Source: Nemertoderma westbladi
Lineage: Eukaryota; Animalia; Xenacoelomorpha
Reading direction: 5' to 3'
Assembly: GCA_032718475.1 (NCBI GenBank)
Contig: JAUCBJ010000680.1
Location: 1 to 50,460, forward strand
DNA: 50,460 nucleotides
Below, one piece after another: positions 2 to 48,583 of this stretch. Within the stretch, counting starts at the first letter, position 1, and each line of letters begins with the position of its first letter. The notes under the pieces are model-generated. The model was given only the letters and a program-made list of their open reading frames with translations. It ran no database searches and was not told the DNA's origin. Made by a program: the position numbers and the translations under genes.

Positions 2-3000
2 GAAACTTTCCGTCGGAATATACCTACCGATCGAGAATACGGTAGCCGCGGGGAGGATTATTCGAGAAGAATAAACTTCGATCCCGAACAACACATGCAG
101 ACTGTAGGGCATACTGTAGGTCTTACTGCACATACCGTAGGCCATACTGAGAGAGGCAATGTAGGCGATAGGATAGCGCGGACGACGGGATTAAACCCGG
201 AAGTCGCGGAATACATACCGGCGGGTAGGCCAGAAGCTGATAGGCCTATACCGGTACCAGCACAGCAGTATGACTACAGCATGCAGGGACATAACATATA
301 CCCAGGGGAGGGGGGAATTATTGCGGATAGGTGTATGGGCCCCAACATATTAACATCAACCCCAGTACCAGACATACCGGTGGGGGGGGGACAGGGTGAC
401 ATTCCCCCATCACAATATCAACAATATACCCCGACAGGAACAAGAACGAGACCCCTAGATGAAAACAGGTCGTGTGATACAGACATATGGAGGGGGCCGC
501 TACCCCCGATGACATATCCGAGTCAGAGAAGATCAAGAAATAGGACGGACGAACCGCACCAGACAAGGGAAACTATACAGCACCCGTCGAATCCATTAGA
601 AGCGCAGGCAATGGGGATGGCCACGTTGATCGATGCGTTGAAAACGAGGATCGAATTACCACCCGTGGAACCGTTCAAATTCGATGGGAGCAGGCCGGAA
701 GAATACTTACAGTTTCGGCGAATGTATAGCAACGAAATACTAACAAAAAACTTGACGCAGGCGGAGTGCCTAAAGTATCTACAAGTGTACACGGGAGGCC
801 CAGCATACGATATCGTGAGGCAATACCAAGGAATAGAGGGCGGCTTCACGACAGCATGGCGGGCACTGGATAGGGAATACGGGCACCCGGCCAAGATCAT
901 CAGGCAAACGCTGAGAGGCATAACATCGGGTGGCCTACAGGATAATCCCGTTAGCATTAAGACGTTTGCTAACAAAGTCGAGAAGGCGCTGATCGTGCTG
1001 AAGACGCTAGACGCGCCATACGAGCTCAACGCGTCCAATAACATCACCACGATAGCGCAGGCACTACCGAGCTGGCTGCGCAACAAATGGAGGAAGGTCG
1101 CTTTCTCCACCCGAGACAAGAAGGGTGCGGAACCAGGTTTAGAAGAAATGTCAAACTTCTTAAATTACGAGGCTGAACTAATAACGGACCCAGTCTATAG
1201 TGAAGATAGCCTGGGAAAGGGACCAAAGGCAGATCACTACAGGCCCAAACCAGAGCACAATACATCGAACGCGTTACCGAGACTCAGGCAATCATTGCCA
1301 TATGCAGCGACGCAGGGGACTGCAAGTCCACAGACAAGCGAAGATAGGACAACATCAGGGGGCGGACAGGGGAACAATAACAACATGAATAAACATAACC
1401 CCAATACGTCCAGTAGGTCAAACCCAGTCAATAAGAATAGTAGGGACTTTGGTACGAATATAACTGCGATACGCAATGCATTGTATAAAGAGGGCTACGA
1501 CCCAAAGAGCAAGTGCCAGTTACACGCAAATGCGCTTCATAAAACCATGAACTGCAGGTACTGGCAGGCGCTACCGAGGCAAGACCAGATAGATTACGCG
1601 TCGAGCAATAAAATCTGCTCGCGATGTGTGAAGAGTGGACACAAGGCCAGGGAATGCCAAGAGAAGCCGGTCAAGTTTGGCCAAAGGAGAGGCCAGACGA
1701 TGGCAACAAGCACAATAGGGGCGAAGAAGAGAGGAACAGTGCTACTTGGAGTAGTACCAGTGCGAGTGATCGGAGAAGGCAATCGATCAGTAACAACACT
1801 AATGCTGGTTGATAGTGGAGCTGCCTTCACATTAGTTGAGGAATGGGTAGCCGAAGAAATAGGGTTGAGAACGAGGCCAAGCAGGATGGCGGTGACAACC
1901 ATCTCTAGCAAAGACGAGATCCTAGAGATGAGGACAGGACGGTGCGCAATTGCAGCAGTGGCACCAGGATGCGATTACGGGGCAACCATCGACCCCATCC
2001 AAGTAATAGAGTCAATTAACATCAATGCCAGGCGGCCAACCAACATCGAGGTCGAGCAATACAAATTCCTGGACAACATTGACTTCTCAATCCCAGACGT
2101 GGACGTTAGGAAGGTATCCATCATAGTAGGCATGGACTGCCCAACAGCCCACGAGAGAATGCAAACGGTCTTCGGCGAAGACAAGCAGAGCGACCCGGTG
2201 GCCATACTAACGCCATTCGGGTGGACGCTGAGTGGTCCAATTAAGAGCAAGATACCATTCAGGATGTCGGAGACATCAGGATGCATGTTCGCGGGAACAA
2301 TGCAGGAAATGGGTGACGAGGGAGCAGAGGAGCAGCTTAAAAGACTGCTCAGGCAGGACTTCGAGGGACTGAAAGAGACCGGAGTCGGGACCTCGGTAGA
2401 AGACAAGCAGGCTCTACAAAGTGTGGAGGAATCCATGACGTGTGATGAGGGGCGGTATACAATAGGAATGGTATGGAAACTACCGAAGATACCGCTACCC
2501 GATAATAGAGGGATGGTACTCACGAGACTCCGCAAGCTGAAACAAACACTACAACGGAGCCCCGAGAAGAACGAGTACATTCACAAAACCATTAAGAAGT
2601 ACGTCGAGAAAGGATGGGCCGTGGAGTTACCGGTCGACGAACCGAACACGGACAGGACATACTACCTGCCACTCCACGTAGCTTTAGACCCAAAGAAAGG
2701 TAAACTTAGGATGGTAGTCGATGCATCGGCAAAGACCGACGGAAAGTGCTTAAACGATTACCTACTAGAGGGCCCAAACATATACAATTCGGGCATAGAA
2801 GTACTACTTAGATTTAGGAATGGGAAACACGCCTTCACGTGTGACATAGAAGGCATGTTCAACCAAGTCCGAGTAACAGAGGAAGATAGCGATAGTCAAC
2901 GCTTCTTATGGTATAACGGCGAAGAAGAACCGCCTATAATACCGGCATATAAGATGGTAGTACAAAACATGGGGGCCAAGTCGTCCTCATTTACGACGAC

Positions 3001-5719
3001 TATGGCAGTGAGAGACACGGTAAAGGGGAAGGAGGATAGATATAGCAGTAGGGCCGTCGACATGATCAGACGCGGTTTCTACGTAGACGACGGCATGGAG
3101 TCTGGAAATACGGTTGAGGAGATACTGGGAACAGGGCGCGAGGTTCGCGACATCCTGAGAGGATCCGGCTTCAACCTGACCAAATTCCAATCCAGTTCAG
3201 AAGAATTTATCAGGGAAATAGAGGACAAGAAACCAGAATCGACCATGGACAACCCTACAACAGCCAAAGGACAGGACATGGCGATTAAGAGAACGGAATC
3301 CCAGCAGAAGGCGTTGGGAATCGTGTGGGATAGGAAAACAGACGAACTGAAGTATCAGCTGAGCCAGGAGGGCGCAGACACCCATACGAAGAGGGGTTAC
3401 GTATCGTATATAGCAAGGATATACGATCCCTTAGGCCTAGCATCCCCATTACTAGTCACGGGGAAACAGATACTCAAGAGAGTATATAAGTTGAAGGATG
3501 AGTGGGACGTAGAGGTACCAGAAGACATTAAGAAACAGTGGAGCAAATGGACAGGAGACTTGGAGAGGATGGGAACATACAACATGCCGCGAGTGTATTT
3601 CCCGGACGGGAACATGACGAATCTGGACCTACATATGTTCTCCGACGCGTCGTTAGAGGCATACGGAGCGGCACTCTATTTAGTACAACGAGAGGGGCCT
3701 CACAAGCCCAGACTAGCCTTTAGCAAAGCTAAGTCAACGCCGCCAGATTCAGCATCTGTTTCCAAGTTAGAATTAACAGCCGCGAGACTAGGAGTTAGAG
3801 CCACAGCCTACCTAGTGGATACAATTCCCAACATAGTGGAGACACACTACTGGACGGACTCCATGGTAGTGCTTGGTTGGCTACACAACGAAAAGACGAG
3901 GTACCCGATATTCGTCGCGAATAGAGTGGACGAAATAAGGGCGAGCACAGAATTGGAAAGGTGGCACTACTGCCCAACAGACGAGAACCCAGCGGACTTG
4001 CTGTCGAGGGGCGTGGAACGCCACACTTTCTTAAAGAAAGAAGTATTGTGGCAAAACGGGCCACAATTTCTGAGCGATAGGGAGGCCTGGCCGCCGATGA
4101 GGAAGGTGGACCCGGGCTCGGAAGTAGTATCAGAAGGAGAAGAGGGAGATTCAGAGGGAGAAGAGATATACTCCCAGATGGTGAGGGAGATCAGGGACGT
4201 GCAACCAGGAAGGGAACTGTGCGATAACCCGACGGATAAACTCCTCAGCTACAGTTCTAGTTGGTATAAGACCAAGAAACTAGTGGCGTACTGGAGAGCC
4301 TTTGGGAATTTCCTTGCGGGAGTCGGCAAGGACAAGAAGACCAGGACAACCATAGATCTGGAAGGAGCGGCCAAGGCAGTGATCCGCTACGAACAACGCA
4401 AGAACTACGGCGACGAGGTGGAACGTGTCGGTAACCAACAACATCTCCGACGGGATAGCGAGTTGATCACGCTGTCGCCACAACTCAACGAGGATGGGAT
4501 CCTAGTAATGAATTCAAGGGTGGGATATAACAACAGTATAGTTGTGCCACCGAAACCCATCATCATTCCCACAGGATCGCCTATAGTCCACCAGATCATA
4601 TGGGACTCCCACAAATCGATACTGCATGGGGGCACCAACCGAACCCTCACAGAGATAAGGAGGACCTATTGGGTCAAACAACTAAGGAAGAAGGTTAAAG
4701 CGGTAGTGGGGCAGTGCCAGACCTGCAGACGAGCGAAGAAGGAACGAGCCGTACAGGAGATGGCGCCACTACCGGCGAGTAGGGTAAGACAGCACGACCC
4801 GCCATTTACACATTGCGGTGTGGACATGTTCGGGCCGATAAAGATCAAGGTGATGCGACACACGGAGAAACGCTACGGTATTATCTTCGTATGCAACAAT
4901 ACGCGGGCGGTAGGGATAGAACTCGCCCAAGATGCAACCGCATCAGCCTTCATTAACGCCTTAGAAAGGTTTAGGGACCGCAAAGGTGGGACGATCGCAG
5001 TAATATATAGCGACAACGGCACCAACTTTGTGGGTGCAGAGAGTGAGATGGCAGAGGCCTTAGACATCTTGGAGGGAGAAGAAGTCAGGGCGGCCATGAG
5101 AAGACGACAAGTGAAGTGGGAGAGACGGACGCCGTATGCACCACATACACTAGGATGCGTCGAAAGACTGGTGGGCAGTTCGAAACGTCTAATGACGAAG
5201 CTGATGAACACCCACATGGTCACTGAAGACGTCTTACGGACGGTACTTGCAAAGTGCGAGGGGATCATTAATAGCAGACCGCTATACCCGGAGAATGATG
5301 ACCCTGAGTCACTAGACGTGTTGACGCCTAGCCATTTCCTGATGGAAAGGCCAGCGACCATAGATATGCGGGGTGTAGACCCAGATGATATACACTCCCG
5401 GCAAAGTTGGAAAGTAGCTAAAGCAATTAGCGCAGAGTATTGGAGGAGGTGGGTAGAAGAATACCTACCCACGCTCCATAAGCGAAGCAAGTGGAGGAAG
5501 CCAAACAGGGAGTTGAGAGAGGGAGATCTCGTAATCGTCACGGATGATACTATCATCAACAACCAATGGCGGTTGGCGAGAGTTGTAGGCACCTACTCCG
5601 ACGAGGACGGAAGAGTCCGATCGGTAGAAGTGCGGATAGGTGGAAAGATAGGTGCGAAAGACAGGAAAACCTACAGGAGAGCAGTAGGTAAATGCTGTCT
5701 CCTAGAAGGGGCACCTTAA
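2..5719 (+). CDS. BEL/Pao Gag-Pol polyprotein (Gag, Zn knuckle, aspartic protease, RT, RNase H, integrase with C-terminal DUF5641-like region); 5' incomplete
   Basis: Frame is open from base 2 through ATG 95 to TAA 5719. Gag PFKFDG..EYLQF; knuckles CQLH-x4-H-x4-C and CSRC-x4-H-x4-C (1616-1657); protease LVDSGA (1811); RT YYLPLH, RMVVDAS, CDIEGMFNQV, YVDD (3080); IYDPLG; RNase H FSDAS..AYG, WTDS, NPADLLSRG; integrase H..HGG/CQTC, DMFGP, SDNGTNF, ERLVG; C-terminal WRRWVEEYL. Confidence 0.96.
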   Translation, partial: ETFRRNIPTDREYGSRGEDYSRRINFDPEQHMQTVGHTVGLTAHTVGHTERGNVGDRIARTTGLNPEVAEYIPAGRPEADRPIPVPAQQYDYSMQGHNIYPGEGGIIADRCMGPNILTSTPVPDIPVGGGQGDIPPSQYQQYTPTGTRTRPLDENRSCDTDIWRGPLPPMTYPSQRRSRNRTDEPHQTRETIQHPSNPLEAQAMGMATLIDALKTRIELPPVEPFKFDGSRPEEYLQFRRMYSNEILTKNLTQAECLKYLQVYTGGPAYDIVRQYQGIEGGFTTAWRALDREYGHPAKIIRQTLRGITSGGLQDNPVSIKTFANKVEKALIVLKTLDAPYELNASNNITTIAQALPSWLRNKWRKVAFSTRDKKGAEPGLEEMSNFLNYEAELITDPVYSEDSLGKGPKADHYRPKPEHNTSNALPRLRQSLPYAATQGTASPQTSEDRTTSGGGQGNNNNMNKHNPNTSSRSNPVNKNSRDFGTNITAIRNALYKEGYDPKSKCQLHANALHKTMNCRYWQALPRQDQIDYASSNKICSRCVKSGHKARECQEKPVKFGQRRGQTMATSTIGAKKRGTVLLGVVPVRVIGEGNRSVTTLMLVDSGAAFTLVEEWVAEEIGLRTRPSRMAVTTISSKDEILEMRTGRCAIAAVAPGCDYGATIDPIQVIESININARRPTNIEVEQYKFLDNIDFSIPDVDVRKVSIIVGMDCPTAHERMQTVFGEDKQSDPVAILTPFGWTLSGPIKSKIPFRMSETSGCMFAGTMQEMGDEGAEEQLKRLLRQDFEGLKETGVGTSVEDKQALQSVEESMTCDEGRYTIGMVWKLPKIPLPDNRGMVLTRLRKLKQTLQRSPEKNEYIHKTIKKYVEKGWAVELPVDEPNTDRTYYLPLHVALDPKKGKLRMVVDASAKTDGKCLNDYLLEGPNIYNSGIEVLLRFRNGKHAFTCDIEGMFNQVRVTEEDSDSQRFLWYNGEEEPPIIPAYKMVVQNMGAKSSSFTTTMAVRDTVKGKEDRYSSRAVDMIRRGFYVDDGMESGNTVEEILGTGREVRDILRGSGFNLTKFQSSSEEFIREIEDKKPESTMDNPTTAKGQDMAIKRTESQQKALGIVWDRKTDELKYQLSQEGADTHTKRGYVSYIARIYDPLGLASPLLVTGKQILKRVYKLKDEWDVEVPEDIKKQWSKWTGDLERMGTYNMPRVYFPDGNMTNLDLHMFSDASLEAYGAALYLVQREGPHKPRLAFSKAKSTPPDSASVSKLELTAARLGVRATAYLVDTIPNIVETHYWTDSMVVLGWLHNEKTRYPIFVANRVDEIRASTELERWHYCPTDENPADLLSRGVERHTFLKKEVLWQNGPQFLSDREAWPPMRKVDPGSEVVSEGEEGDSEGEEIYSQMVREIRDVQPGRELCDNPTDKLLSYSSSWYKTKKLVAYWRAFGNFLAGVGKDKKTRTTIDLEGAAKAVIRYEQRKNYGDEVERVGNQQHLRRDSELITLSPQLNEDGILVMNSRVGYNNSIVVPPKPIIIPTGSPIVHQIIWDSHKSILHGGTNRTLTEIRRTYWVKQLRKKVKAVVGQCQTCRRAKKERAVQEMAPLPASRVRQHDPPFTHCGVDMFGPIKIKVMRHTEKRYGIIFVCNNTRAVGIELAQDATASAFINALERFRDRKGGTIAVIYSDNGTNFVGAESEMAEALDILEGEEVRAAMRRRQVKWERRTPYAPHTLGCVERLVGSSKRLMTKLMNTHMVTEDVLRTVLAKCEGIINSRPLYPENDDPESLDVLTPSHFLMERPATIDMRGVDPDDIHSRQSWKVAKAISAEYWRRWVEEYLPTLHKRSKWRKPNRELREGDLVIVTDDTIINNQWRLARVVGTYSDEDGRVRSVEVRIGGKIGAKDRKTYRRAVGKCCLLEGAP

Positions 5720-5760
5720 ATTAGAGTTAGTGTGAAGTTTAGTCGTCCAAGTTTTGGACT

Positions 5761-5773
5761 GAGGGGGGTGGGA
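5761..5773 (+). promoter_or_regulatory. PPT-like G-rich tract directly after pol (possibly ancestral or internal PPT)
   Basis: gaggggggtggga begins 42 nt after the pol stop, where a BEL PPT normally lies. It is preceded by the hairpin gtccaa-gtt-ttggac and followed by agggcg-aga-cgccct and an (aaata)n tract. Confidence 0.45.
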
Positions 5774-5833
5774 TTGAGGGCGAGACGCCCTTCCCACACA
5801 AATAAAATAAAATAAAATAAAAAATAAATAAAA

Positions 5834-6340
5834 GTTAGTTAGTTAGTAGGTACGTAGTACCTAGAGTTAGTTAGTTAGTAGGTACGTAGTACCTAGAGTT
5901 AGTTAGTTAGTAGGTACGTAGTACCTAGAGTTAGTTAGTTAGTAGGTACGTAATGCCTAGATAGAGTTAGAGGGTAGGTAGTACCGATAGTTAGAGTTAG
6001 TAGGTACGTAGTACCTAGTTAGAGTTAGAGTTAGTGGGTACGTAGTACCTAGTTAGAGTTAGAGGGTACGTAATGCCTAGATAGAGTTAGAGGGTAGGTA
6101 GTACCGATAGTTAGAGTTAGTAGGTACGTAGTACCTAGTTAGAGTTAGAGTTAGTGGGTACGTAGTACCTAGTTAGAGTTAGAGGGTACGTAATGCCTAG
6201 ATAGAGTTAGAGGGTAGGTAGTACCGATAGTTAGAGTTAGTAGGTACGTAGTACCTAGTTAGAGTTAGAGTTAGTAGGTAGGTAGTACCGATAGAGTTAG
6301 AGTTAGAGGGTACGTAGTACCACTAGTTAGAGAGAGAGAG
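5834..6340 (+). repeat. Tandem array of taggtac-gta-gtaccta hairpins separated by (gtta)n/(gttaga)n linkers
   Basis: About 3.5 copies of the 32-bp unit gttagttagttagtaggtacgtagtacctaga from 5834, then a 120-bp higher-order period (lines 6001 and 6121 identical, 6241 starts the same way). Confidence 0.92.
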
Positions 6341-6836
6341 TAAGAGGCAAAAGGGGGTAAAATAGGGTATAGATATTAGTTAGGAGTAAGTAGAGTTAGT
6401 AGCGAGAGGGGGGCATATGAGTGCAGCTGGATAAATCGTGTGGCCACACGACGCATACTGCTGTACTGCATAGGCCCACTGATTAGGCCAGAATATGGAT
6501 CAAAGAGAGAACAGAATAAATCCATAGGCAGTAGTAAGTAGTAGGACAGTAGAATCAAAGCAAAATAAATAAATAAATAGAATAGGGCTAAAAATCGGAA
6601 AATAGTGGTAACACAAGAAAAGTCGTTCTAGAACATAATAAAAGTAACGGACAGAAATCGTAAACTAGGCTGATTTACTAGCTCCGAAATTAATTAAATT
6701 AAATTAGGCTTGAAAGGCGCAGTTAAGTAGAAAAGTAGGCCATTATCGAACTGTAGGAAACATCTCAATACATCACTCATCTGTATTGCGCCTTGGTAAG
6801 GCACCACCCTGCAGGTGAGCGAGTGTAGTGTTCGGA

Positions 6837-9371
6837 ATGGCGAGTAAGCTGATCAGGAAGAGAAAGGCGGAGTCAGGAGGAAAAGAAATATTGGTGGATT
6901 TCACCGAAAGACACCCGGAGGAGAAGACGAGAGGATACTACGAGAGGTTGGAAAGGGGTCACGCGGCACGAGCGCTGCAGGATCACTTCCGGGAGGCGCA
7001 CGAACAGCGGTTGGTCGGGACCTACGGGACGCCGTCGCTGGATAACGCAATCTTCCAACACTTCCACTACGTAGTGAAAGGAGACGAGGCGAAGTTCGGG
7101 ATTCCGAAGTATCCGAGGGAATCGCCGAGGAAGGACTGGAAAAGATTCATAGAGTCCGTCAACAGAGGAGGATATATGATCCTAGATGACGAGGGAACCG
7201 TGGAAGACGAAGCGGGATCGAGACGAGGAATGGCAGGATCGGCCAGGACCATACTCTTGCATTTGGCAGCGCCAAATGGGGACATCTTCTTATTCGACTT
7301 AGGGACGTATGGGAAGAAGGACGGGCCGAAATTAGACCGACTGCCGAAAGCGGTACAGGTCTTAGTAAGAGAGAAGTCGACGACGAAAGTGGGATCGGCG
7401 ATTCGCGAGGACGCGGAGAGGATCATCGGTCCGGACGCCACCAACCTCCTGGATATGCAGAAAGTCTTTATGGCTATGACGGCACCGGATGGATTGGGGG
7501 TGGTCGAGAACTTAGGCCAATGCGGGGCGGTGGCGATGGGCCAATTATTGGGGCTCGTATGCCACAAACCAATGGATTGGGGGAAGTTTAGGGAAGAATA
7601 CGGAGCAGAACTAGCGAACTCGCTGAAGTGGGGAGCGAGACCGGGAAAGCAGGAGGTATATAAGTTTCGCAGAGGAGCGATAAAGGTATATCAGAAGCGA
7701 TATATCCTGCAGGAGGACTGGATGATGATAAGTTTACTTAACTTATTCATGACCGTAGTTATCGAAAGAGAACCAGGGGCATTTCTGTTATCGGGATCAC
7801 CCCTAAGCTACAGGAGAGCCTTTAAGACGGCCTTTGACGGTCTGGTAGACCACCCGGGGCTGAAGGGCGAGTCGGTGTACTACAACAGCCGACATCTGGT
7901 AGATGGGGAGACGGATACACCGTATCAGAGATGGGAGCAGCTAGAGATGGATAGACGGGAAGCAAAGCGACTGGAAGAAGTCGCTAGACGGGAGAGGATA
8001 GAAGCAGAGGAGAGGGAAGAGGAGGCCAGGACACAGAGTTATGGCTTCGAGGAACAGGCGGGTCTAGACGAGCTTCATTGGACTTCGTCAGGGAGTTCGG
8101 GGGAGTCTCTAGGACGAGAATTGGGATGGACGGTGGGATCGCCGAAACAGTCGACGTCGGGGTTGCAAACGATGCCCATACCAGCGGGCGCCGAGGGCGA
8201 CCAACCGCCAAGGAAGTTAAGGGAGCTAGAGAGATGGAGAGCTACCGGCGAGAGCCAAGGCGGGAAGGGACATAGTGGATCCATCGGGATACCGGGATTG
8301 GAGACGCTACCGGAAGAAGAGGACGACGACGACGAATTCGGAGAGATACCGCCCATCGAAAGGATAAGCCACTCGGACACGGACTGGGTTGGCGGAAGGG
8401 TGGTGACGGCCAGTGGGGCAAGGGCCTTCTGGAACAGATCCGGCAAGCGGACCTGGGTGCACGAGGGGCCGGCGATGGATTTCGCGGGGAGCACCATCAG
8501 GTTGGGCGAGCAACCGGGGACGGCACCACGGATAGTATTCGGGGAGACGATGCCCGAGAGGGGCGGAGAGATAGACGTGAACAGGGAGAGCAATGTAGAG
8601 AAGTTCGCCTACCAGCGACTCCATAGACCGCGGAGATCGCTTGGGACGAAGGACGAGGTGGGACGCGAGACATTGGTACTCGGCTGCGACTACTGTGGGA
8701 GACAGACCCATCAGGAAAGCAGCTGCCTATACCGGTTCCAACGGGGAACCTTTTGTCTCTATTGTAGAGAACCAAGTCACAGGATGGGGGCGTGTCCACG
8801 GTTGCATAACCGATGTCCAAAGTGCCACTTTCGGGGACACTACGGACGCGAGTGCGACTGGATGAGCGACGAGGAGAAGTTCACGAGGTTCGAGGAGTGG
8901 GCCGACGTCGGGGCCATGACGCGCCAGCGCATGAAGGCCCAAGAGTTCAAGTGGGGTTTCTTCCTCATAAACCAGGAGACCCACATGGAAATAATAAAGC
9001 GAAGGTTACCGTTTACCTATCAAGAGGTAGCTACGGCGGCATCGTTCGCCGGAGTTATGAACACGCAACGGTACCTGGACAGGTGGACACCAGAGAACCG
9101 GAGGGAGTTTAGGGATTTCTTGGCGGAACACGTACCAAAGGCAATGAAGATGATCCTATGGGACGCCACACGAGGGAAACAACCAGGCCATTCTGAGGGG
9201 CCACCGGCGAAGCGGTATCGGGCTTTAATAACACCAGCGCCCAAGGAGCCGACGACCGGGATCAGCAAGGAAGTGGCAGCGAAGGTCCGGAAGCAGAAAG
9301 CGGATGATGCCAGAGGAACAGTGATAACCAAGAAACGGGCCAGGGAGGAGGACGTGAGGAGGTACAGATGA
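6837..9371 (+). CDS. Retrotransposon ORF2: DEDDy-type (WRN/EXD2/Mut-7/RNase D-like) 3'-5' exonuclease domain, acidic linker, three CCHC zinc knuckles
   Basis: First ATG at 6837 (in-frame TGA at 6816). ExoI YMILDDEG (D 7185, E 7191); ILLHLA..IFLFDL; LPKAVQVLV..KVGSAIREDAERI (ExoII D 7410); NLLDMQ; Q..YILQED (ExoIII-like, 7701-7718). Three CX2CX4HX4C at 8685-8855. Basic NLS-like ends (RKRK, KKRAR). Confidence 0.8.
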   Translation: MASKLIRKRKAESGGKEILVDFTERHPEEKTRGYYERLERGHAARALQDHFREAHEQRLVGTYGTPSLDNAIFQHFHYVVKGDEAKFGIPKYPRESPRKDWKRFIESVNRGGYMILDDEGTVEDEAGSRRGMAGSARTILLHLAAPNGDIFLFDLGTYGKKDGPKLDRLPKAVQVLVREKSTTKVGSAIREDAERIIGPDATNLLDMQKVFMAMTAPDGLGVVENLGQCGAVAMGQLLGLVCHKPMDWGKFREEYGAELANSLKWGARPGKQEVYKFRRGAIKVYQKRYILQEDWMMISLLNLFMTVVIEREPGAFLLSGSPLSYRRAFKTAFDGLVDHPGLKGESVYYNSRHLVDGETDTPYQRWEQLEMDRREAKRLEEVARRERIEAEEREEEARTQSYGFEEQAGLDELHWTSSGSSGESLGRELGWTVGSPKQSTSGLQTMPIPAGAEGDQPPRKLRELERWRATGESQGGKGHSGSIGIPGLETLPEEEDDDDEFGEIPPIERISHSDTDWVGGRVVTASGARAFWNRSGKRTWVHEGPAMDFAGSTIRLGEQPGTAPRIVFGETMPERGGEIDVNRESNVEKFAYQRLHRPRRSLGTKDEVGRETLVLGCDYCGRQTHQESSCLYRFQRGTFCLYCREPSHRMGACPRLHNRCPKCHFRGHYGRECDWMSDEEKFTRFEEWADVGAMTRQRMKAQEFKWGFFLINQETHMEIIKRRLPFTYQEVATAASFAGVMNTQRYLDRWTPENRREFRDFLAEHVPKAMKMILWDATRGKQPGHSEGPPAKRYRALITPAPKEPTTGISKEVAAKVRKQKADDARGTVITKKRAREEDVRRYR

Positions 9372-10076
9372 GTTCCCGGAGGCGAGGGAATGAGACTGAG
9401 ACTGGGAGGTGGTGCGCCTGGAAGGCGCCGCATGTAACGTACGAACTATTAAATATAAATTTAATTAATGCAAATAACTATATAAGTGCAATTCGTATGT
9501 ACGTACGTAGTGATTAGCAGTAAAATATATACGTTTGGAGTAAGTACTATAGTCATACAACCTTTCTCAACTAGCTACTGGGACTGGGGGACAATGACTA
9601 TGGCACTATGGACGAGACAACTGACAATTTCACACTTCTTGAGTGCGGCGGCACGAGAGGGGGGGGAGGTTCGTCAGGAGAGATAAAAACAGTCAAAGTG
9701 GACTTGAGAATCGGAATAAGAGTGATAGAGTGAAGTGCGGAGAGAGTGCGAACGCAATCCTAGTGTGGGGGGGGGAGAATGAGAGGCTGAGTAAGGGACG
9801 AGGAGGTCCGGGGGTATGAGAGAGTTAGGGTGAGAGTGAAGGTGAGATAGGGCGAGAGTGTTGGGGAAACAAAAATCGCGTGAAGAGGTGAGCGCGATCG
9901 GCCCGACATGAGACGCCAGGCGTAAAGGGTAGCGTTATCATACCCAGAGGGAGCGGCCCGGAAAGCCGACTCCGAGAGAAAAGATTTCCACCCCACACCC
10001 GATGCTAGATCGGGATCCAGCGGGATTGTAGCGCACTTTTTTGGTTGATGCTATCTTCTTACCGGGAAGATAGCAT

Positions 10077-10085
10077 GGGGGGGAG
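10077..10085 (+). promoter_or_regulatory. Polypurine tract (plus-strand primer) before candidate 3' LTR
   Basis: gggggggag directly followed by TGT, and preceded by an 11-bp perfect stem atgctatcttc/gaagatagcat (10048-10076). Confidence 0.7.
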
Positions 10086-10624
10086 TGTTAGCTTATTCAA
10101 TCCCGCCAACACCCCATAAAGTTATTAGCCGATAAGCAATATTGGGAGCCGCGAGATTGGGTAATTAACCAACTCGCGCCATCCCAATAAGAATGGGAAG
10201 GAAGCACACAATAGAGGGTCAGGGGCCAAACCCCTAACCCAAGGAGAACAGGTGGAGTTAACGGGAATACTCCACGGGGCGCCAACAAGGGTATTAACCA
10301 ATCAGAGGGGGGAACGGCATCGATTGAGTAGCAGTAAGGCCACCGTGCAATATAACCAATAACCTATTAATCAGTGATTCAGTTATCTCAAGTGCAGCAG
10401 TGCTAGCGTAGGGTACAGCCAATTAGTTTAGTTAGGGGATCACGGGACTTTAGTTACCGTATCCCGCCTTGTACACATTCACAACATATCTATATCTTAT
10501 AACCTTCTATTATACACCAAACTTCAGAACTCAGTCACTTTATTTCATCCTTATACACGGCGGGGACGCGTGGACTAAATTACCACAACCGGATAAATCG
10601 GGATCCCTCTTGGATCCCGTCACA
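10086..10624 (+). repeat. Candidate 3' LTR (539 bp)
   Basis: Starts TGT after the PPT and ends ACA exactly where the 17-bp satellite begins. Contains recurring aaccaa(t) motifs, TCAGT initiator-like motifs and a terminal hairpin cgggatcc-ctctt-ggatcccg. The 5' LTR is not in the window, so this cannot be confirmed here. Confidence 0.65.
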
Positions 10625-12367
10625 ACCGGTACATCCATGGTACCGGTACATCCATGGTACCGGTACATCCATGGTACCGGTACATCCATGGCACCGGTAC
10701 ATCCATGGCACCGGTACATCCATGGTACCGGTACATCCATGGTACCGGTACATCCATGGTACCGGTACATCCATGGTACCGGTACATCCATGGTACCGGT
10801 ACATCCATGGTACCGGTACATACATGGTTCCGGTACATACATGGTACCGGTAGATACATGGTACCGGTACATCCATGGTACCGGTACATCCATGGTACCG
10901 GTACATCCATGGTACCGGTACATCCATGGTACCGGTATATCCATGGTACCGGTACATCCATGGTACCGGTACATCCATGGTACCGGTACATCCATGGTAC
11001 CAGTACATCCATGGTACCGGTACATCCATGGTACCGGTACATACATGGTTCCGGTACATACATGGTACCGGTAGATACATGGTACCGGTACATCCATGGT
11101 ACCGGTACATCCATGGTACCGGTACATACATGGTTCCGGTACATACATGGTACCGGTAGATACATGGTACCGGTACATCCATGGTACCGGTACATCCATG
11201 GTACCGGTACATCCATGGTACCGGTACATCCATGGTACCGGTACATCCATGGTACCGGTACATCCATGGTACCGGTACATCCATGGTACCGGTACATCCA
11301 TGTAACGGTACATCCATGGTACCGGTACATCCATGGTACCGGTATATCCATGGTACCGGTACATCCATGGTACCGGTACATCCATGGTACCGGTACATCC
11401 ATGGTACCGGTACATCCATGGTACCGGTACATCCATGGTACCGGTATATCCATGGTACCGGTACATCCATGGTACCGGTACATCCATGGTACCGGTACAT
11501 CCATGGTACTGGTACATCCATGGTACCGGTACATCCATGGTACCGGTACATCCATGGTACCGGTACATCCATGGTACCGGTACATCCATGGTACCGGTAC
11601 ATCCATGGTACCGGTACATCCATGGTACCGGTACATCCATGGTACCGGTACATCCATGGTACCGGTACATCCATGGTACCGGTACATCCATGGTACCGGT
11701 ACATCCATGGTACCGGTACATCCATGGTACCGGTACATACATGGTTCCGGTACATACATGGTACCGGTAGATACATGGTACCGGTACATCCATGGTACCG
11801 GTACATCCATGGTACCGGTACATCCATGGTACCGGTACATCCATGGTACCGGTATATCCATGGTACCGGTACATCCATGGTACCGGTACATCCATGGTAC
11901 CGGTATATCCATGGTACCGGTACATCCATGGTACCGGTACATCCATGGTACCGGTACATCCATGGTACCGGTACATCCATGGTACCGGTACATCCATGGT
12001 ACCGGTACATCCATGGTACCGGTACATCCATGGTACCGGTACATACATGGTTCCGGTACATACATGGTACCGGTAGATACATGGTACCGGTACATCCATG
12101 GTACCGGTACATACATGGTTCCGGTACATACATGGTACCGGTAGATACATGGTACCGGTACATCCATGGTACCGGTACATCCATGGTACCGGTACATCCA
12201 TGGTACCGGTACATCCATGGTACCGGTACATCCATGGTACCGGTACATCCATGGTACCGGTACATCCATGTACCGGTACATCCATGGTACCGGTACATCC
12301 ATGGTACCGGTACATCCATGGTACCGGTACATCCATGGTACCGGTACATCCATGGTACCGGTACATC
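10625..12367. repeat. 17-bp minisatellite (accggtacatccatggt)n, about 102 copies
   Basis: Direct reading. Contains the palindromes gtaccggtac and ccatgg. A variant triplet (catacatggttcc / catacatggtacc / gatacatgg) recurs six times. Confidence 0.98.
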
Positions 12368-12587: not shown

Positions 12588-15500
12588 GTAAGTTGATATA
12601 CAACCTAATTCACGACTATCTAAGGTCTTGTGGGAGGCAGTCTGAAATGACAGACCTCCATAGTCAGGTTGAGATAAGGATTATGAGATAATCCTTTTTT
12701 CTTATTAACTATGATTTGGTAAAATTTAATTATTCAAATTTTAGAATTTGAGAGCTGCAGAATTACAATTTAGAAGTTGCGAAGTTAGAATTTAGAAGTT
12801 AGATATATATATATAGAGTTATACCTAACATTTCCCAAAAGGTGAGCTCTAAAGACATTCTAGCCCATTCCTATTCACTGGAGGAGCTAATCGATTCTGT
12901 CGAAGAATTCGTTATAGAATACCCAGGTCGGTCCACTCGGGAGCTCCAAAAAAGTGCGGTGGCATTGAAAAAGAAGACTTTAATAATGGCCACAACGACC
13001 TCGGAGGTTATATTTCATATTCAATATTGAATAGTTCAATGTTATATTCAATAGTTTATACCGGTACATTTGTTATGGCTTTTGCACAGAATATCGGATA
13101 CGTTATACTCATTAGTTTATATATATTTAGTGGTATTCTCTTGTATTTCACTTAGATTAAGGGGAGCCTGGAGGCTGAGCTACATGGAAGATACCTTAAA
13201 TCATACACACAGTGCCGAGGTTGGATAGAAAGCGCCCGAACTGATATTCTAGACTCGGAAGAGTTGAAGGAACAGGAGCAAGTAGATTGTATCGAGGTAT
13301 GTGAATGGTGGAATATAGCCAACAACACACGTACACGTTGGTATGCAAGAGACAGAGCATGTAACACTGTAACAGTTGTAGGAATTAAACATAATAATAA
13401 TAGTGTAATAGTTAGTAATTTAATAATATTCTGATAGTTATGGTATCCCAGTAACATGGTTACCACGAATTACAGCCACGCAGAATAAATTTGATAACAA
13501 ACACTGGAATTATAGAAGCCATATCAAACCACGTAAATTTACATTTTATCAAAAATAAACATTTCCGAGAGTGTGACATTATGTAAATTCAATGTTTATG
13601 ACTATGTAACACTCTCTGTATGTATATTATAGCCCTTCTGATAATTTATTGAATGGACCGATTTTCTATCAGTTTATAAAACACACGTTTGATTCCTTAC
13701 TGTTCAGAATATTTGTATATGCACCTATGAAGGTGTAAGCCATGTCCCGATGTCCGGTATACAAGTTTCAGTAACATGAACAAGCTTAATGAAACTACAA
13801 GAAACCTAGATATATTTGTGTTGTAAATTAGAATTCTTATTTTTCCTCTAAAATTTTTTTCATAGTTCTAAAAGAGTGTCTCTATCGATATTTAACCAGG
13901 TCCCAGGTGCACTTTATTAAAGTACAGTACATCAATACTGAAATAAAACAATCAATAAATTCACATGGCATCCCTTTTTGGCTTAACTGTTCATTTTTGT
14001 GGTAGCCTGCCCGGTTGTCCAAAGATTTACTCTTGGGACGCTGAAAACAACAAGAACACATAATTAATTATATTAAATACTGACTTATATATTCCAGACA
14101 AGACAGGGGCATCTCTGCCTCGGATCCTTAAATTATAGCTAAATGAGTCCCAGTTCTCTCTCGGAGTATAGTTCTGGGGGGGGGGGGGGGCTCACTGGAA
14201 ATACGTTCTAAGATTTTGTGCGTAAATCGTAGTCTAACGGCCGAAGACTATATTTTTTACTTCACACCTACAGTATACTATTCTGCAATGTTATCCTCCT
14301 TAAAGTTACTTATGGGCGACATTTCAACAATCTTTTTACATTTCAGGAATTACTTTCTCAGAAAGACGCAGTTGAATTGAATTTGGACAAAGTGGTAGAG
14401 CGAGCTAATATAATAATAGGTACCAAGTTGCGAATGAAAGAAGATATATTGAGGGATGTAGAATCTTTACAACTGGATTGGAAAAAACTTCTAGATGAAA
14501 TCACATCGCTGAAGATTAAACTAAATCAAAAAATCGCATGGGTAAATGAGCAATACAACAATAATGGGATATTTAATTTAAATATAATATTATTTACTTT
14601 TTAATAATATAGATTTTAAACAATTATGCCATATAATAACATATCTTAATTAAAGTAAGGAACTTTATATATTAAGCCAACTTATCAGTAATCTGTTGTT
14701 ATTCCACTAAAGACCGGTTCACAGATTCACTTCGCGGTGACATTGCGGTAGTTTTGTGTTGCATTTTAAACACGTATGTGGGCACTTCGCGCAGCACGTA
14801 AGTCCAGATTAGCGTAGAGGTACAATTAGTGGACCTAGTCATTCACCCTCTAGTGGCAGACAGAGGAACTATAAAAGTCTGTCTGTGAGAAGAGTTTCTT
14901 TATTCAGTAATGCCCGTAGGATACTCCTACCAAATTTCAGATGAATCTGATGGTTGGTTCTACAATTACAGCAACTTTTACGTTTCTGTCAATTCGCCCC
15001 CTAGCGGCAGACAGATTAACTACAGAAGTCTGTTGTCATTCAGTAAAATTTCAAACTTTTGTTGATAGACTACATGTCTACCAAGTTTGGTTGCATTTCA
15101 TCCATGATTGACCGACTTATAAGCGTTCAAACATTTCCGACAACAATGACAATGACGGACGGGTCCACTAATTATAGCCCTTCGCTAAGGCTCACCTGGA
15201 CTTACGTGGCTCGCCCCACACACTTTGTCAGCGCTGTATCCAAAAAGCAAAACGCTGTAACTGTGATTGACCAGAATTGCGATTTCAGAACGCTGTCAGC
15301 GCGAAGTTTATCTGCGAACACGGCTGGAGTTTCTCCATTGATGACAGATATTGTACGCTAAGTGTAATAGGTTATTTACCGTACGGTTGTTACAGTAACT
15401 GCAATTAATAACATTAAATGAATATGGATTTCATCATTATTGCTAAATATATTCCTAAACATTACAATAATATTATTATTATTAATAAATATCGCGTAAT

Positions 15501-18500
15501 TAAGATTATTAATTAATTAGAAAACATATGTTCCACCATTATATTATAGTGTAGGGTAGTCGTAGCCGTAGTTAATATATTTTACACTCTAGTAATTTGA
15601 ATGCGATAGCATTTCAATTATCACTTTCCAGTTATTTTTTTTTTCTTCAGCAAAAAAGCTATGATGACGCTGTCTGCCATTTTGAAAGGTGGTTACAACA
15701 ATCATATGAGGCGTTAGACGGATTAAAAACCCTATCTACAGTCACATTAAGTAACAAAAATAATCAATTAGCGAAATTGAAATCTCTACAAGAGGATGTG
15801 TTCGGGAGAAACACTGCGTTGGAGTCGATTGTTAATAATTCGAATAAAATTAATCACGGGCACAAAGGAAAACAAATGGTTGAGAAGTACAATCAGCTGT
15901 TTAAAGATCTCGATGTAAGTAAATTACTTTTCTGTATAAAATGGTAATCTTAGAAATGAGATGTGGGCTTTCGAATATTAAATTGTTATTCATCCACAGA
16001 ACAAGCATGAAAAATATGAAACAAAAAAAAAGTAGTGAATATATATCATGACAATACTTTAGGAGTAGGAACCAGCAGTAAGATAATCGTAACTAATTTC
16101 TTCAACAGATTTCAATAAAGTCTTCAAACCATCTCTTGTCAATACATTCGCAATACGACAAGGAAGTGCGAACTATAATGGAGTTGTTGAATCAATGTAT
16201 GGAAGAAGGTTCGTGTTTGGCAAACTTTGCGGGGAATCGAGAACAACTGGAACATAAACTTACATCTCTGAAGAGTCTCATAGACAGGTGAGATCAATTA
16301 TCTTGCATAACAAGTGATAAATATATATAAATACAATATAGATTAATTGATAAGTTATTAATTGAGTATCTTTATTATAACGTAAATTTATATATATTTG
16401 GAATAATATTGTTCAAATTAATTAACTCATCGTTGTCAATCAAGCATTGCGTTCGACAATATTATTCACAATTCCAAATTTATTCAATAATACATACAGA
16501 CTTACTGAACTAACTGGTCTTCAAAATTGTTTCAGTTTCTCGGAACAAAGGCTGCACATCTTATTGCTTAATTAGGTCTACATAGTCCCTCATAGTTAGT
16601 GAGTAAAAAAAATACATGTTATTTTCCAGATTGGAGGTTGGAAGAGGAAAATTCAAATATATTGAAGAATTAGGAAATAAATTACTTAAAGAGTCCTCTG
16701 CAAATACGACAATACAACAACAGGTAGCTTAATTTACCAATAATTTGTATCATATAAAATTATGTTTTAATTTAAATACATTTATATCGGGTTTGCGAGT
16801 GCTTCTTCATTCCAGATTTGATTTAATTAAGAATATATACATTTTAGAATGAAGAAATACAACATCAGTTGGTCGATGGTATGAATAGCCTTAACGAGTG
16901 GCGCGATGGCCTTGAAAAGATCATCAGCCAATCTAAAGAATTCGAAAATTCCAAAGATGCATTTGAAGTCTGGTTGGAGGCGATAGAATTAAAACTTTCT
17001 AGCAAACCAACTCAAAAAAGCGACCTTCATCAGAGGAAATTACAAGTTGAAAAATTCAGGTAAAATGGCCAAATATTGATATAATTCAATACAGTACAAT
17101 TAGTTCTATCAGTATCACAACATTAAATACAATCAATATTATTTTATGAAATACAATCCCAATATTCTACTCTAAGTTCATAAATACTGTAAATAACATG
17201 ACATGAGTATTTATTATAACCTGTTACATCAACAGCATCTTCAATATATTTGATTATTATTATTTATAACAATATAGGTTAATCCATAATGACATAGCCA
17301 ATCACCACACACTCCTTGATTCACTCACTCAACTAGCAGAAGATCTATTGGATCAATCACAGTTCGGCGACTCATCAATATCCACGAGTATCACTCAGCT
17401 GATGGCCCGGTACGAATCTGTGACGGGATTGGCTAGTTCCTATCTGAAACAGCTGGAAGTGGTAGCCAGTGAATATCATTTATACAGGTTAGTGTTCAGC
17501 AATTAATATTGCACAGTCAGTTTGCTCAAATGCGCAATTGAATTTCACGAGATTACCGGTATCTTCAAGGACTGTATACTTTCATAAGATGCGTCTCAAG
17601 AAAGTCATGGGCTGTCCACCATGATTATTTTCTCCATGAGACTGCCAAAGCAAAACATTATGCACTGCCTGGTCCTCACGGCGAAAGCAATGTCCTGTAA
17701 AGCGGGGTGGCTTTGTTCAATTGTCAAACTTGGGGGACCATTAATTAAGACGCCTTCAATGCTGTACAGGGTCTGGTAGAGTACGTGTTCATTGTTCTTG
17801 ACACAGTGAACACGACGTAGCATGTGCCATCCAGAGATTTGGTGTCCTCAGCAATTAGCATGGACTCCCACATAGGAGTAGTAGGTCTACTGCTGCTCTA
17901 ATTATTCGAACCTTAAGATTCCGATTCTATGTGACTTTCAAATCTTCCATATCCCTTTCAATGCTGGCCATTCCTTCCCCTTACGTATTCGAAGGTCTTC
18001 ACATGACTTCCGAATCCTTGATAATCATGTTAGTTGTTAACTTCAGCGAGAGAGAAAATTATATAAACTATAAAAATTCAGAACTGTTCTAATAATTATT
18101 TCGTGTCACCCACTATTGCCTGCCTAAGTGAAAAAAGCACTTGCACTAATTTATACTAAATATATATTAATCTAAAATAATGTTTTTTTTAATATAGGGA
18201 AGCAATTCAGGATTGTGAAAGACGTTTGTTACATTTGAGTAGGAAAGTGACGGCTCAGAGCGCATTGGATTGCAATGACTTATCAACTACACAATCCCAC
18301 ATAGATAAACATCTCGTGAGTACCGGTACACAGTACATCTAAAGTACTGAATCATGAATCAATCGACTATTATTTACCCATACAATTAAATTGTAACTTC
18401 CTAGCAAAGCTTACATATTAATTTCGTCCTTGTTATTTTTCCGCTAAATAAATGTTTCAAAATGTAAATTTATCGAGTTTTTTTTTTGAAGCTTTCCTTT

Positions 18501-21500
18501 TTATTTATTGTCAAGATGTGCAAGTATATTTATTAATTCACCAACGCTGAAGGGCATTCATTAAAGTTTTATGAAACTCTAACACATATAACACATGTTC
18601 AATACTGTTTTGTAAATAAGTAAATTGTCATTCATTTTAATTACTTAAAAGACCAGTACTGGCCTTTTAATTGGTAGTTCTTTACTTAGCAAGTTTCATA
18701 TAGTATTACTGTACATCACAAATAATGGATATAACAAAGTATGGTAAACAATATCACTCTTGCAAGTAACGATACTATTTCTATAATACTGTCACGGTTG
18801 ACATTGTCACAAATAATCAAACTTTATATTTTCAGTTGTTGATGGAAGACATAAAGGTTTTGATAGCACGATCGGAAGTAGTGACCCAGCAGGGATTGAA
18901 CCTCTTACAGGAATCTCCACAACTTCAGACTTCTATTGAATCTCAATTAGAAAATCTGAAAGAGAGTTGTACAACCTTGTCTAGGACGGGCAACCAGATA
19001 GGGTTGCGACTAAAGGAATCACTAACGATCCATATGAACTTCACTCAGCTGGTAACAGAGGTGGGTTACCTTTCATATAAAAGAACAAGTAAAGTATTTG
19101 TAAATAAGTACTTATGAGCAGTATTGATCGATAGTAATTAATTCCTGAAGAATTTAATTCATGTTTTTTTTCAGGTAAATAGTTGGCTAAACACCCAAAC
19201 TAAGTTGCTCACCAGCAGCGAAAATGATCCACAAACTCAATCAGATGAGTTTAGAGATGCGATAACTCAGGCTGGAGAATATAAACACTCAGTCGAAGCA
19301 TTAGCGGAACGCTGTGATAGGGTTGCTGCCACGGGTAGTGGTGCCACGCAAGAGATGAGTAAACAGGTGCTACTAGATCTCAGTGCCTTCCAGAATAGGG
19401 TTGAAGACAGAATAGCAGCTCTGCATGATAGAAACTTAGAATTCAGTGAATACGTCAGACGGCGTGAGGAGTGTACCGAGTCTGTGGAATCTATTGCTTT
19501 AGCAATTGCCGAGAAACGTGAGACAAAGACACCATTAAACCCAAAGGTTTCTGAAATACTTATTGGTCAACTGCTTGGCATTAGCGAACAATTAAAATCA
19601 AAAGACAACACTTTGGAGGATTTGAACCACTTTTATAGGCAACTTCATAAGAAGGTCGCTGTGGATCCGGTACTTGTTGCACTTGGAGAGAAGTGTAGGC
19701 AATTACAAACGGACGTCCAAAGTGTATCGAAACTGATTGCGAAGCAGTCACTGTTGTGTAGAGAGTATTACAAGTCATTGGATGAATCGAATGATACCTT
19801 GAACCAACTCATTAAGGAAGCGAGGCATATTGAGGTCGATAAAACTGTATCTTTAGATGAGAAAGTTGAACAGGCAAAGAAGTTCCAATCTGCTCTGAAA
19901 TTTACAAAAAATGACAAACTAGAAAAATTCAAATCGCAAGGATTAGCCGTGGCCGAGTTTTGTACCGAAACCGATAAGAAGGTTGTAGATGACGAAGTTA
20001 AACGTTTAGAGGATTATTTGAATGAACTCGCAGAACTTGTGAAGAAAGTAGAGGAAAGCGCAGTAAAGGCATTACGAGGTTACAATTCTTTTCTAAAGGG
20101 TATAGCTGATGTCGGGAAATGTTTGGAAGAACACGAAGCTGAGCTCAACCGCGCAATGTCTATCGGACCCGATCCAAAGGATACCGAAGAGAAGATTAAA
20201 GAACACGTTTCTATGGAAACTAATCTAGAATCAGTGAATTCTAGAATTTGCCAACTAACAGAGGATTACGAAGTTTTATTTGAAAATATAAATGAGCCCG
20301 AACGAGAGATTTTGGAGGATCGCTTAGAACATATGAGAGCGAATATGACTGGGTTAAAGGACAAATCCGCAACAAGGAGGTTGGCGTTGGATGATTCGCT
20401 AAGGGATAGAAGGAACTTCGAGACAAATTTCAAGGAAGTAGCTGATTGGTTGAATAATTCCAAGGAGCGAGCATCCAAGCTGGGTAGTGGCCACGTTGCT
20501 AAGCAACTCGAAGAAACAAAACACTTATATGACTCGTTAGATGCTTTTCGACCGAATATAGTGCGGTTGCACAGCAGGTATCAATCCTTGCTCAGTTCGT
20601 GCCCAACTGAAGCTCGAGTGGCGTTTGGTGAACGTGTTCACACATTACAAAGTCACTTCGATCAGCTTAAGTCGCAATTAACTGCCAGATTAACTCAGCT
20701 TAAAATGGTTATTACGGAATATGATAATTTCCAAAAGAACATGAAAGATTTCAATAATTGGGTTCAAGGTATACGCGACCAGCTGAGTGATGGAGTTACT
20801 CTTAATGTGCCAATTGATATGATAGACCAACAGGTTGAACAGCAGACGGAATTACTTCTAGATATTGAGGTTCACAGTGTTCAGGTAAGGCGATAGATAG
20901 ATTACTTTTTTTCTAATTAATTAGGTGTTGATTTAATTTAAACTTTAGTGTTCTTGCTCAAGGGCCTTTTTTACTAGGCAATTTTTTTGGGGATTTTTTA
21001 TGACGTTTTTTTCACGCGGTTATTTTTAGAGGGTGAACTGGCCCGGCGACGTGTGTGCCAAAGTGTGCCATTTATGGAATATCCGGTCTACACGGTCATA
21101 ACGCCTGAAATTCCGGTAAATTTATTAGATTATGACCTAGAGTTAGGGTTACACTATCATTATGCCTGCCTTGGCGGCATTTTATCCTTAAGGCCGACGG
21201 ATCGACCCATACTGTACTTTGTGGAATGGTTACAATTTCGTACAGACAGCACAGGGCACAGCTGCATATGGCATGCCCTATTTTATTCAATAAATTCGTG
21301 TCTAGGATATTAGGTGGTACCCCGCGTTCCCACCCGGAATCTAAATTCCCCATAGAATCTAATATTATTGTTTTTCACAGCTCCTTTCAGGACGTTTCTC
21401 TTTTAGGTGACTTTAATTATGGTTTGTCGTTTGTGTCTGACCGACAAACCCTAACCTAAAAAACCAAACCAATATCCCAGTCAGATTTACAATACAAAAC

Positions 21501-46900: not shown

Positions 46901-48583
46901 TGACGTGTACCATCCTTCCGTACCCATTGTGTGTCCTTGAGGTGTACCATCCTTCCTTACTCATTGTGTGTCCTTGACGTGTACCATCCTTCCTTACCCA
47001 TTGTGTGTCCTTGACGTGTACCATCCTTCCTTACCCATTGTGTGTCCTTGTCGTGTACCATCCTTCCTTACCCATTGTGTGTCCTGGTCGTGTACCATCC
47101 TTCCTTGCCCATTGTGTGTCCTTGAGGTGTACCATCCTTCCTTACTCATTGTGTGTCCTTGACGTGTACCATCCTTCCTTACCCATTGTCTGTCCTGGTC
47201 GTGTACCATCCTTCCTTACCCATTGTGTGTCCTTGTCGTGTACCATCCTTCCTTACCCATTGTGTGTCCTTGACGTGACCATCCTTCCTTACCCATTGTG
47301 TGTCCTTGTCGTGTACCATCCTTCCTTACCCATTGTGTGTCCTTGACGTGACCATCCTTCCTTACCCATTGTGTGTCCTTGACGTGTACCATCCTTCCTT
47401 ACCCATTGTGTGTCCTTGACGTGTACCATCCTTCCTTACCCATTGTGTGTCCTTGACGTGTACCATCCTTCCTTACCCATTGTGTGTCCTTGAGGTGTAC
47501 CATCCTTCCTTACCCATTGTGTGTCCTTGACGTGTACCATCCTTCCTTACCCATTGTGTGTCCTTGACGTGTACCATCCTTCCTTACCCATTGTGTGTCC
47601 TGGTCGTGTACCATCCTTCCTTGCCCATTGTGTGTCCTTGAGGTGTACCATCCTTCCTTACTCATTGTGTGTCCTTGACGTGTACCATCCTTCCTTACCC
47701 ATTGTCTGTCCTGGTCGTGTACCATCCTTCCTTACCCATTGTGTGTCCTTGTCGTGTACCATCCTTCCTTACCCATTGTGTGTCCTTGACGTGACCATCC
47801 TTCCTTACCCATTGTGTGTCCTTGTCGTGTACCATCCTTCCTTACCCATTGTGTGTCCTTGACGTGACCATCCTTCCTTACCCATTGTGTGTCCTTGACG
47901 TGTACCATCCTTCCTTACCCATTGTGTGTCCTTGACGTGTACCATCCTTCCTTACCCATTGTGTGTCCTTGACGTGTACCATCCTTCCTTACCCATTGTG
48001 TGTCCTTGAGGTGTACCATCCTTCCTTACCCATTGTGTGTCCTTGACGTGTACCATCCTTCCTTACCCATTGTGTGTCCTTGACGTGTACCATCCTTCCT
48101 TTCCCATAGTGTGTCCTTGTCGTGTACCATCCTTCCTTACCCATTGTGTGTCCTGTTCGTGTACCATCCTTCCTTACCCATTGTGTGTCCTGGTCGTGTA
48201 CCATCCTTCCTTACCCATTGTGTGTCCTTGACGTGTACCATCCGTCCTTACTCATTGTGTGTCCTTGACGTGTACCATCCTTCCTTACCCATTGTGTGTC
48301 CTTGACGTGTACCATCCTTCCGTACCCATTGTGTGTCCTTGAGGTGTACCATCCTTCCTTACCCATTGTGTGTCCTTGACGTGTACCATCCTTCCTTACC
48401 CATTGTGTGTCCTTGACGTGTACCATCCTTCCTTACCCATTGTGTGTCCTTGACGTGTACCATCCTTCCTTACCCATTGTGTGTCCTTGACGTGTACCAT
48501 CCTTCCTTACCCATTGTGTGTCCTTGACGTGTCTCATCCTTCCTTTCCCATTGTGTGTCCTGGTCGTGTACCATCCTTACCCA
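34908..48583. repeat. 37-bp satellite (gtgtgtccttgacgtgtaccatccttccttacccatt)n, about 13.7 kb, roughly 370 copies, intronic
   Basis: Direct reading. Main variants are tga/ggt/tgt before cgtg. Higher-order block duplications are present. Confidence 0.99.

Follow-up and report, generated by a model that had tools for sequence, protein, structure and literature searches.

The window, that is the whole 50,460-nt stretch of the Nemertoderma westbladi contig JAUCBJ010000680.1 that was analysed, opens inside a mobile element whose genes and non-coding features are collected in Table 1. Judged by the content and order of the domains in its translated gag-pol frame, the element is a BEL/Pao LTR retrotransposon. 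A profile search matched Peptidase_A17 with an E-value of 5e-39, and relatives of the integrase region reached 33–41% identity at best among the matches listed, the named ones being animal. BEL/Pao elements have a polypurine tract, about 10 nt long, ahead of the 3' LTR, and the present element has one. They also have two LTRs of 0.2–1.2 kb, a primer-binding site for tRNA-Arg or tRNA-Gly and a target-site duplication; the window holds one 539-bp LTR candidate, the 5' LTR and the rest of the element's 5' end lying beyond it. Four contigs of run X5 diverge as loose ends behind 10624, the end of this LTR. The element agrees with Belpaoviridae/Semotivirus in domain order, single gag-pol frame, polypurine tract and LTR size, but differs in its length (at least 10.6 kb compared with 4.2–10 kb) and in a third gene that is not env-like (PMC8742986). 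Since ORF2 and the LTR are matched by thousands of variant contigs (8187 and 4364) from two studies, the element is a multi-copy family. Contig depth, which is not copy number, peaks at 5742–5793, in the array and at 9950–10375, and these peaks could stem from a more abundant non-autonomous partner.

Table 1. Features of the BEL/Pao element and of the spacer that carries the palindromic array, numbered from the first nucleotide of the window.
Feature	Position	Strand	Description
BEL/Pao gag-pol	2–5719	+	1905 aa, single open frame; 5' end beyond the window
gag-pol domains, in order			DUF1759, CCHC (weak), aspartyl protease (Asp_protease_2), RVT_1 (weak), Peptidase_A17, Integrase_H2C2, rve, DUF5641
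Two predicted hairpins after the pol stop	5745–5797	+	5745–5759 and 5768–5797; from folding
A-rich tract	5800–5833	+	Six AATAAA (5801–5827)
Palindromic array	5834–6330	+	16 units of 17 nt (5847–6323); C-free GTTA/GAGTTA linkers of 11–17 nt
Predicted hairpin 3' of the array	6409–6477	+	Long and imperfect; folding z −3.3
Candidate branch point and splice acceptor	6775–6815	+	CAG/G at 6812–6815; from motif only
ORF2	6837–9371	+	844 aa; exonuclease-like N-terminal part, acidic low-complexity middle, three knuckles
Polypurine tract	10077–10085	+	Followed by TGT; 11-bp hairpin (10048–10076) just 5'
Probable 3' LTR	10086–10624	+	539 bp, TGT...ACA; CCAAT boxes, TATA-like at 10349, initiator-like at 10379

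We also considered a 3' LTR that would start at about 5774 and enclose the array, an idea prompted by a loose pattern (a G-run followed by TGT or TGA within 400 nt of the pol stop) in 40 of 59 relatives. It was rejected: TTGA follows the G-run at this position, the G-run itself is predicted to be paired, and 5720–6836 and 9372–10640 share no real likeness (best E 0.17). Polypurine-tract-like G-runs occur at six places in the non-coding parts (5763, 6408, 9586, 9767, 9810 and 10077), with TGT after the last one only. Behind the ORF2 stop (9452–9511), 9 nt of the array unit come after an AT-rich tract, which faintly recalls the layout found behind pol (E 0.17). Strong local folding was calculated for 9612–9691 and 10012–10291 in the 3' UTR and around the start of the LTR (z −3.1 to −4.7), exceeding that of every folding window in the array. 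A 17-bp satellite of about 103 copies (10625–12367) directly abuts the end of the LTR; its unit has 5-bp palindromic arms in common with the array unit, probably by chance.

The second gene of the element, ORF2, carries an acidic motif at aa 117–119 of its N-terminal part, whose motifs resemble those of 3'-5' exonucleases, and three CX2CX4HX4C knuckles at aa 617, 640 and 660. An Atlas feature match linked the protein to a PF01612 cluster (0.92; 163 shared features; family assigned to 50% of members). The exonuclease part gave no match in Pfam, NCBIfam or the PDB, and the single-sequence AlphaFold model had a pLDDT of 32. No homologues were found in protein searches (full length, 464–1477 aa; exonuclease part, 141–450 aa) or among viral and metagenome contigs, plasmids returned only two chance hits at E 4–5, and the three weak hits in PHROGs all lie outside the exonuclease part. 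As HMM, PDB and homologue searches were blank despite the Atlas match, we call ORF2 a likely exonuclease only. Among the 40 best-supported rows of differences between copies (382 further rows lie beyond those), 37 fall in ORF2. Of these, 28 affect third codon positions and 29 leave the amino acid unchanged, with 30% synonymous expected (p about 1e-9). This excess of synonymous changes among the listed differences argues for purifying selection on ORF2.

A gene of this kind is not without parallel. According to the available part of the report on the bdelloid elements Juno and Vesta (PMC5408684), their DEDDy ORF3 is likewise a separate non-env frame after pol with motifs of the 3'-5' exonuclease type. 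ORF2 differs from it in belonging to an element of another superfamily, in its length of 844 aa and three CCHC knuckles, and in being clearly under purifying selection when copies are compared. Homology to the DEDDy protein is a lead only, and the same part of that report describes no array for Juno or Vesta. Long ORFs after pol in ten relatives were considered as kin of ORF2 and set aside, being gag-like or unrelated by eye and giving no match to ORF2 (best E 0.13). An exonuclease-type accessory ORF in BEL/Pao elements was not found in a literature search of titles and abstract openings, which had most subscription journals outside its scope. From its motifs, ORF2 would add BEL/Pao to the bdelloid gypsy-type elements as carriers of a DEDDy-type accessory gene, and the extra ORF is more novel than the array and deserves more attention. 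The preliminary description had placed array, exonuclease-like ORF and reverse transcriptase in one mobile unit, and all three do lie within this one multi-copy element. What connects the array with ORF2 is adjacency only.

The array starts 114 nt 3' of the pol stop (5719), in the non-coding spacer ahead of ORF2. About 16 copies of a 17-nt unit had been reported from first inspection, and exactly 16 were found, starting at 5847, 5879, 5911, 5943, 5971, 6001, 6035, 6063, 6091, 6121, 6155, 6183, 6211, 6241, 6275 and 6307. The successive periods of 32, 32, 32, 28, 30, 34, 28, 28, 30, 34, 28, 28, 30, 34 and 32 nt resolve into a 32-nt repeat followed by a higher-order repeat of four units and 120 nt (28+28+30+34). 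Both periodicities, as well as the unit variants named at the outset, were recovered: exact self-matches run for 88 nt at offset 32 and for 211 nt at offset 120, the TRF score for period 120 is 754, and the GTA centre is invariant in all 16 units. Repetition as such is far above chance. The linkers contain no C in 205 nt, so that all C residues of the array fall within units. Unique spacers between units are absent, the linkers being near-identical simple repeats, and no linker match was found elsewhere in the window. A resemblance of the linkers to telomeric TTAGG or TTAGGG was not borne out, with neither motif occurring in 5834–6345.

The commonest unit is predicted to fold into a stem of 7 bp capped by the GTA loop (−6.5 kcal/mol). 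The four inner pairs are present in all 16 units and the loop is never altered; all seven pairs are intact in eight of 16 units and the closing pair is lost in seven. The earlier impression of a loop retained while stems vary is thus correct for the loop, but the variation in the stems mostly loses pairs. Changes that preserve the stem on both sides were found for none of the seven pairs among eight distinct rows, and the covariation score of 0.092 is close to that of shuffled rows (0.090). Two of the eight distinct substitutions among units retain the pair by a one-sided change to G-U, with a chance probability of 0.30–0.83. The seven variable unit positions take in both sides of three pairs (p 0.02, for a statistic picked post hoc), and four of the seven are unit edges, where linker slippage acts.

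When folding was left unrestricted, units paired with one another with a mean probability of 0.98, compared with 0.01 for local pairing. A duplex of two units is predicted at −19.7 kcal/mol and the same units as two hairpins at −13.0 kcal/mol (2 × −6.5). Local hairpins prevailed only when the pair span was limited to 25 nt. Since unrestricted folding favours inter-unit pairing, local hairpins would be at most a kinetic form, and the array of discrete hairpins described initially gives way to a predicted equilibrium fold in which units pair with one another. Whole-array folding had a z-score of −4.3 on both strands, a value in which one duplicated palindrome is counted many times. At the level of the unit, stability on the + strand gave p 0.031 for the 32-mer and p 0.003 for the 120-mer; p values of 0.05 or below were also obtained for two of five other repeats in the window and for three of 25 post-pol repeat units of distant relatives. 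Hairpin strength of the unit is thus modestly above chance only. A search of Rfam gave no match over the array and two sub-threshold matches, both within ORF2.

Strong predicted hairpins bracket the array (5745–5797 and 6409–6477). The second of the two upstream hairpins includes a G-rich tract in the position that the polypurine tract occupies in relatives, and the segment 5760–5839 folds with a z-score of −3.5. Cross-copy difference rows (n = 28, with 5792–5859 outside their coverage) number none in 5736–5791 and none in 6404–6460, so that both hairpins are without listed differences, and 12 in 5720–5735. AATAAA tracts had been said to flank the array on both sides; the six directly 5' of it agree with this, but the three downstream (6564–6572) lie about 240 nt beyond its end. 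From the array end to the ORF2 ATG there are about 500 nt containing two ATGs and several AATAAA, and an acceptor-like CAG/G, a candidate splice acceptor by its fit to the splice consensus, sits 22 nt 5' of the ORF2 ATG. The acceptor-like site and the two intervening ATGs favour a spliced ORF2 message over an array-driven internal start, and a role of the array as an ORF2 translation element, as once proposed, is unlikely given this gap. From the motif, ORF2 is a candidate for expression from a subgenomic message spliced at 6812–6815. The array would then be confined to unspliced RNA, as it lies 5' of the candidate acceptor in the part removed.

Units of the array are present in 5439 contigs of run X1 and 1095 contigs of run X3, many of which fit two places; these contigs come from two studies and none spans the whole array. 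In 12 of the 13 joints listed, whole units (2–13) are skipped. Because short contigs in repeats can land on the wrong unit, such joints are a mere hint of copy-number variation, and unit number appears to vary among copies. None of the seven listed difference rows within the array touches the inner stem or the loop, a result that is favoured by the core seeds and comes from rows that mostly repeat within-array variants and are not independent. Loose ends near 5897 suggest other short hairpins with a different loop and the same linkers in some copies, and for this reason the GTA loop may not be universal. The initial proposal of a functional RNA module had looked to conservation across copies: the units do recur, but compensatory substitutions are absent and unit number appears variable.

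No counterpart of the array or of ORF2 was found among 79 distant BEL loci, and the two-unit array pattern was absent from viral contigs (0 hits). Of the distant BEL loci, 38 offer 600 nt or more of sequence after pol, and 11 of these have a tandem repeat within 1200 nt of it. Three of these 11 loci have post-pol repeats of 140 nt or longer, none of which resembles the array. Post-pol repeats are thus not rare, and they are family-specific. One distant BEL relative (L039) has an array of its own of about 430 nt, 117–547 nt after the pol stop, with units that are more stable than shuffled ones (p 0.007–0.02).

Comparable arrays are best documented in plants. In the accessible part of one source (PMC11963269), tandem arrays behind pol are a frequent feature of plant LTR elements, with function stated to be unknown. 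Family-specific arrays of variable copy number, which most often adjoin pol or the 3' LTR, occur according to the same text in about half of all Retand elements. The available text of another (PMC7004042) hypothesises that Tat/Ogre arrays arise from abnormal strand transfer. As far as these sources go, the present element resembles plant Retand/Tat/Ogre elements in having a short family-specific array by the pol stop, a long region between pol and LTR with extra ORFs, and an array whose copy number appears to vary. It is not a member of that gypsy lineage, being an animal BEL/Pao element with palindromic units and C-free linkers, and its extra ORF is in sense orientation and exonuclease-like compared with the antisense TRP28 of the plant elements.

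On balance, the array is probably a minisatellite behind pol, hypervariable and enlarged through slippage or template switching in the manner of plant Tat/Ogre/Retand elements, and not selected as 16 hairpins. A single fold-back event in G/T/A-rich simple sequence would have produced the palindromic unit, an origin suggested by the fact that every C of the array sits within a unit. Repeated duplication would then have copied the palindrome, and later unit variants would have been eroded at their outer and closing pairs and then multiplied as part of the 120-nt block. Reverse transcription, with slippage or template switching, is the likely stage at which the array grew and was resized. It would be carried along because the spacer behind pol puts up with changes in length, as the corresponding regions of plant Tat/Ogre/Retand elements do. 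This reading is supported by the exact duplications, the absence of covariation, the unit-skipping joints, the comparable stability of control repeats, the lack of an Rfam match and the post-pol repeats of relatives. The invariant inner stem and loop, the paired variable positions, the C-free linkers and the bracketing hairpins speak against it. Were it slippage DNA and nothing more, the array would be unremarkable.

Some of the same observations could tentatively be read in another way, with the array acting as a multivalent cis signal of full-length RNA for dimerisation, packaging or export. The palindromes might pair two genomes, and the single-stranded G/U/A linkers might bind the zinc knuckles of Gag or ORF2. 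The predicted preference for two-unit pairing over separate hairpins and the high inter-unit probability point in this direction, as do the invariant inner stem and loop, the C-free linkers and the hairpins on both sides; however, such energies arise from any palindromic repeat, covariation is absent, and units on the same RNA would pair first and compete with RNA-RNA pairing. The acceptor-like site would restrict the array to unspliced RNA, but this splice is a candidate from its motif only. In the available parts of the literature, Ty1 dimerises via palindromes (PMC6844567) and most export elements of retroelements span about 500 nt and are found in the 3' portion of the genome (PMC4588558); the Ty1 palindromes sit in the 5' UTR, unlike the array. 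According to the same sources, the array shares with the MusD MTE, the RRE and Ty1 PAL1/PAL2 a size of about 500 nt, a position 3' of pol and self-complementary motifs, and like them would be present in unspliced RNA only, but those elements are unique folds with tested function and the array is a simple repeat without covariation (PMC4588558; PMC6844567). With its unusually clean design of one palindrome and C-free linkers, the array lends itself to in vitro tests of pairing and protein binding.

An improbable extension of such a signal would assign its recognition to ORF2. Made from the spliced message, ORF2 might be an exonuclease-fold RNA binder with triple knuckles that recognises the array and steers unspliced RNA to export, pairing or packaging. 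It would then be Egalitarian-like in fold and Rev-like in role, with the array as response element and with regulation like that of complex retroviruses, which we likewise regard as improbable. This reading draws on Egalitarian, whose DEDDy fold is able to bind RNA stem-loops; the I factor contains an Egalitarian-dependent signal, both according to the available part of the source (bioRxiv 10.1101/2025.08.03.668247).

It is similarly doubtful that the AATAAA cluster and the G/U-rich array together act as an internal poly(A) site or as a block that silences splicing. Either would determine, via host UAG binders of the hnRNP A/Musashi type, how much gag-pol, full-length and ORF2 message is made relative to one another, to which we also give little credence. 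UAG and R-U(1-3)-AGU are binding motifs of these proteins, and the 497 nt of the array contain 81 and 34 of them, respectively (163 and 68 per kb compared with 19 and 3 per kb in gag-pol), UAG being about ninefold denser. The six AATAAA lie immediately 5' of the array and the probable LTR has none, but A-rich tracts are also made by slippage, and a strong internal site would remove ORF2 and the 3' LTR. A literature search of titles found no retrotransposon precedent. Finally, a small guide RNA precursor or a reservoir of substrate for the nuclease encoded by ORF2, CRISPR-like or telomere-related, is very improbable: array, exonuclease-like ORF and reverse transcriptase share one mobile unit and ORF2 is conserved, but the linkers are simple repeats of 11–17 nt with neither a unique spacer nor a match in the window, TTAGG is absent, the stems of merely 4–7 bp are below the length needs of Dicer and Drosha, and to our knowledge 3'-5' exonucleases do not cut internal hairpins.

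Further features were noted in the remainder of the window, where a COG3 gene and spectrin-repeat exons are those of an animal-type genome. On the minus strand, an 877-aa open frame (22991–25624) contains 41-aa Q/P/H-rich repeats and repeated domains that are cold-shock/OB-like by eye. A small ORF at 27372–27743 is Tim9/Tim10-like by eye, and a single-frame COG3 gene at 27955–30336 has a G+C content much above that of its surroundings. Spectrin-repeat exons, nesprin- or dystrophin-like by eye, were recognised at 13156–20896 and 34431–34900, the latter running into a 13.6-kb satellite with a 37-bp unit (34922–48578).
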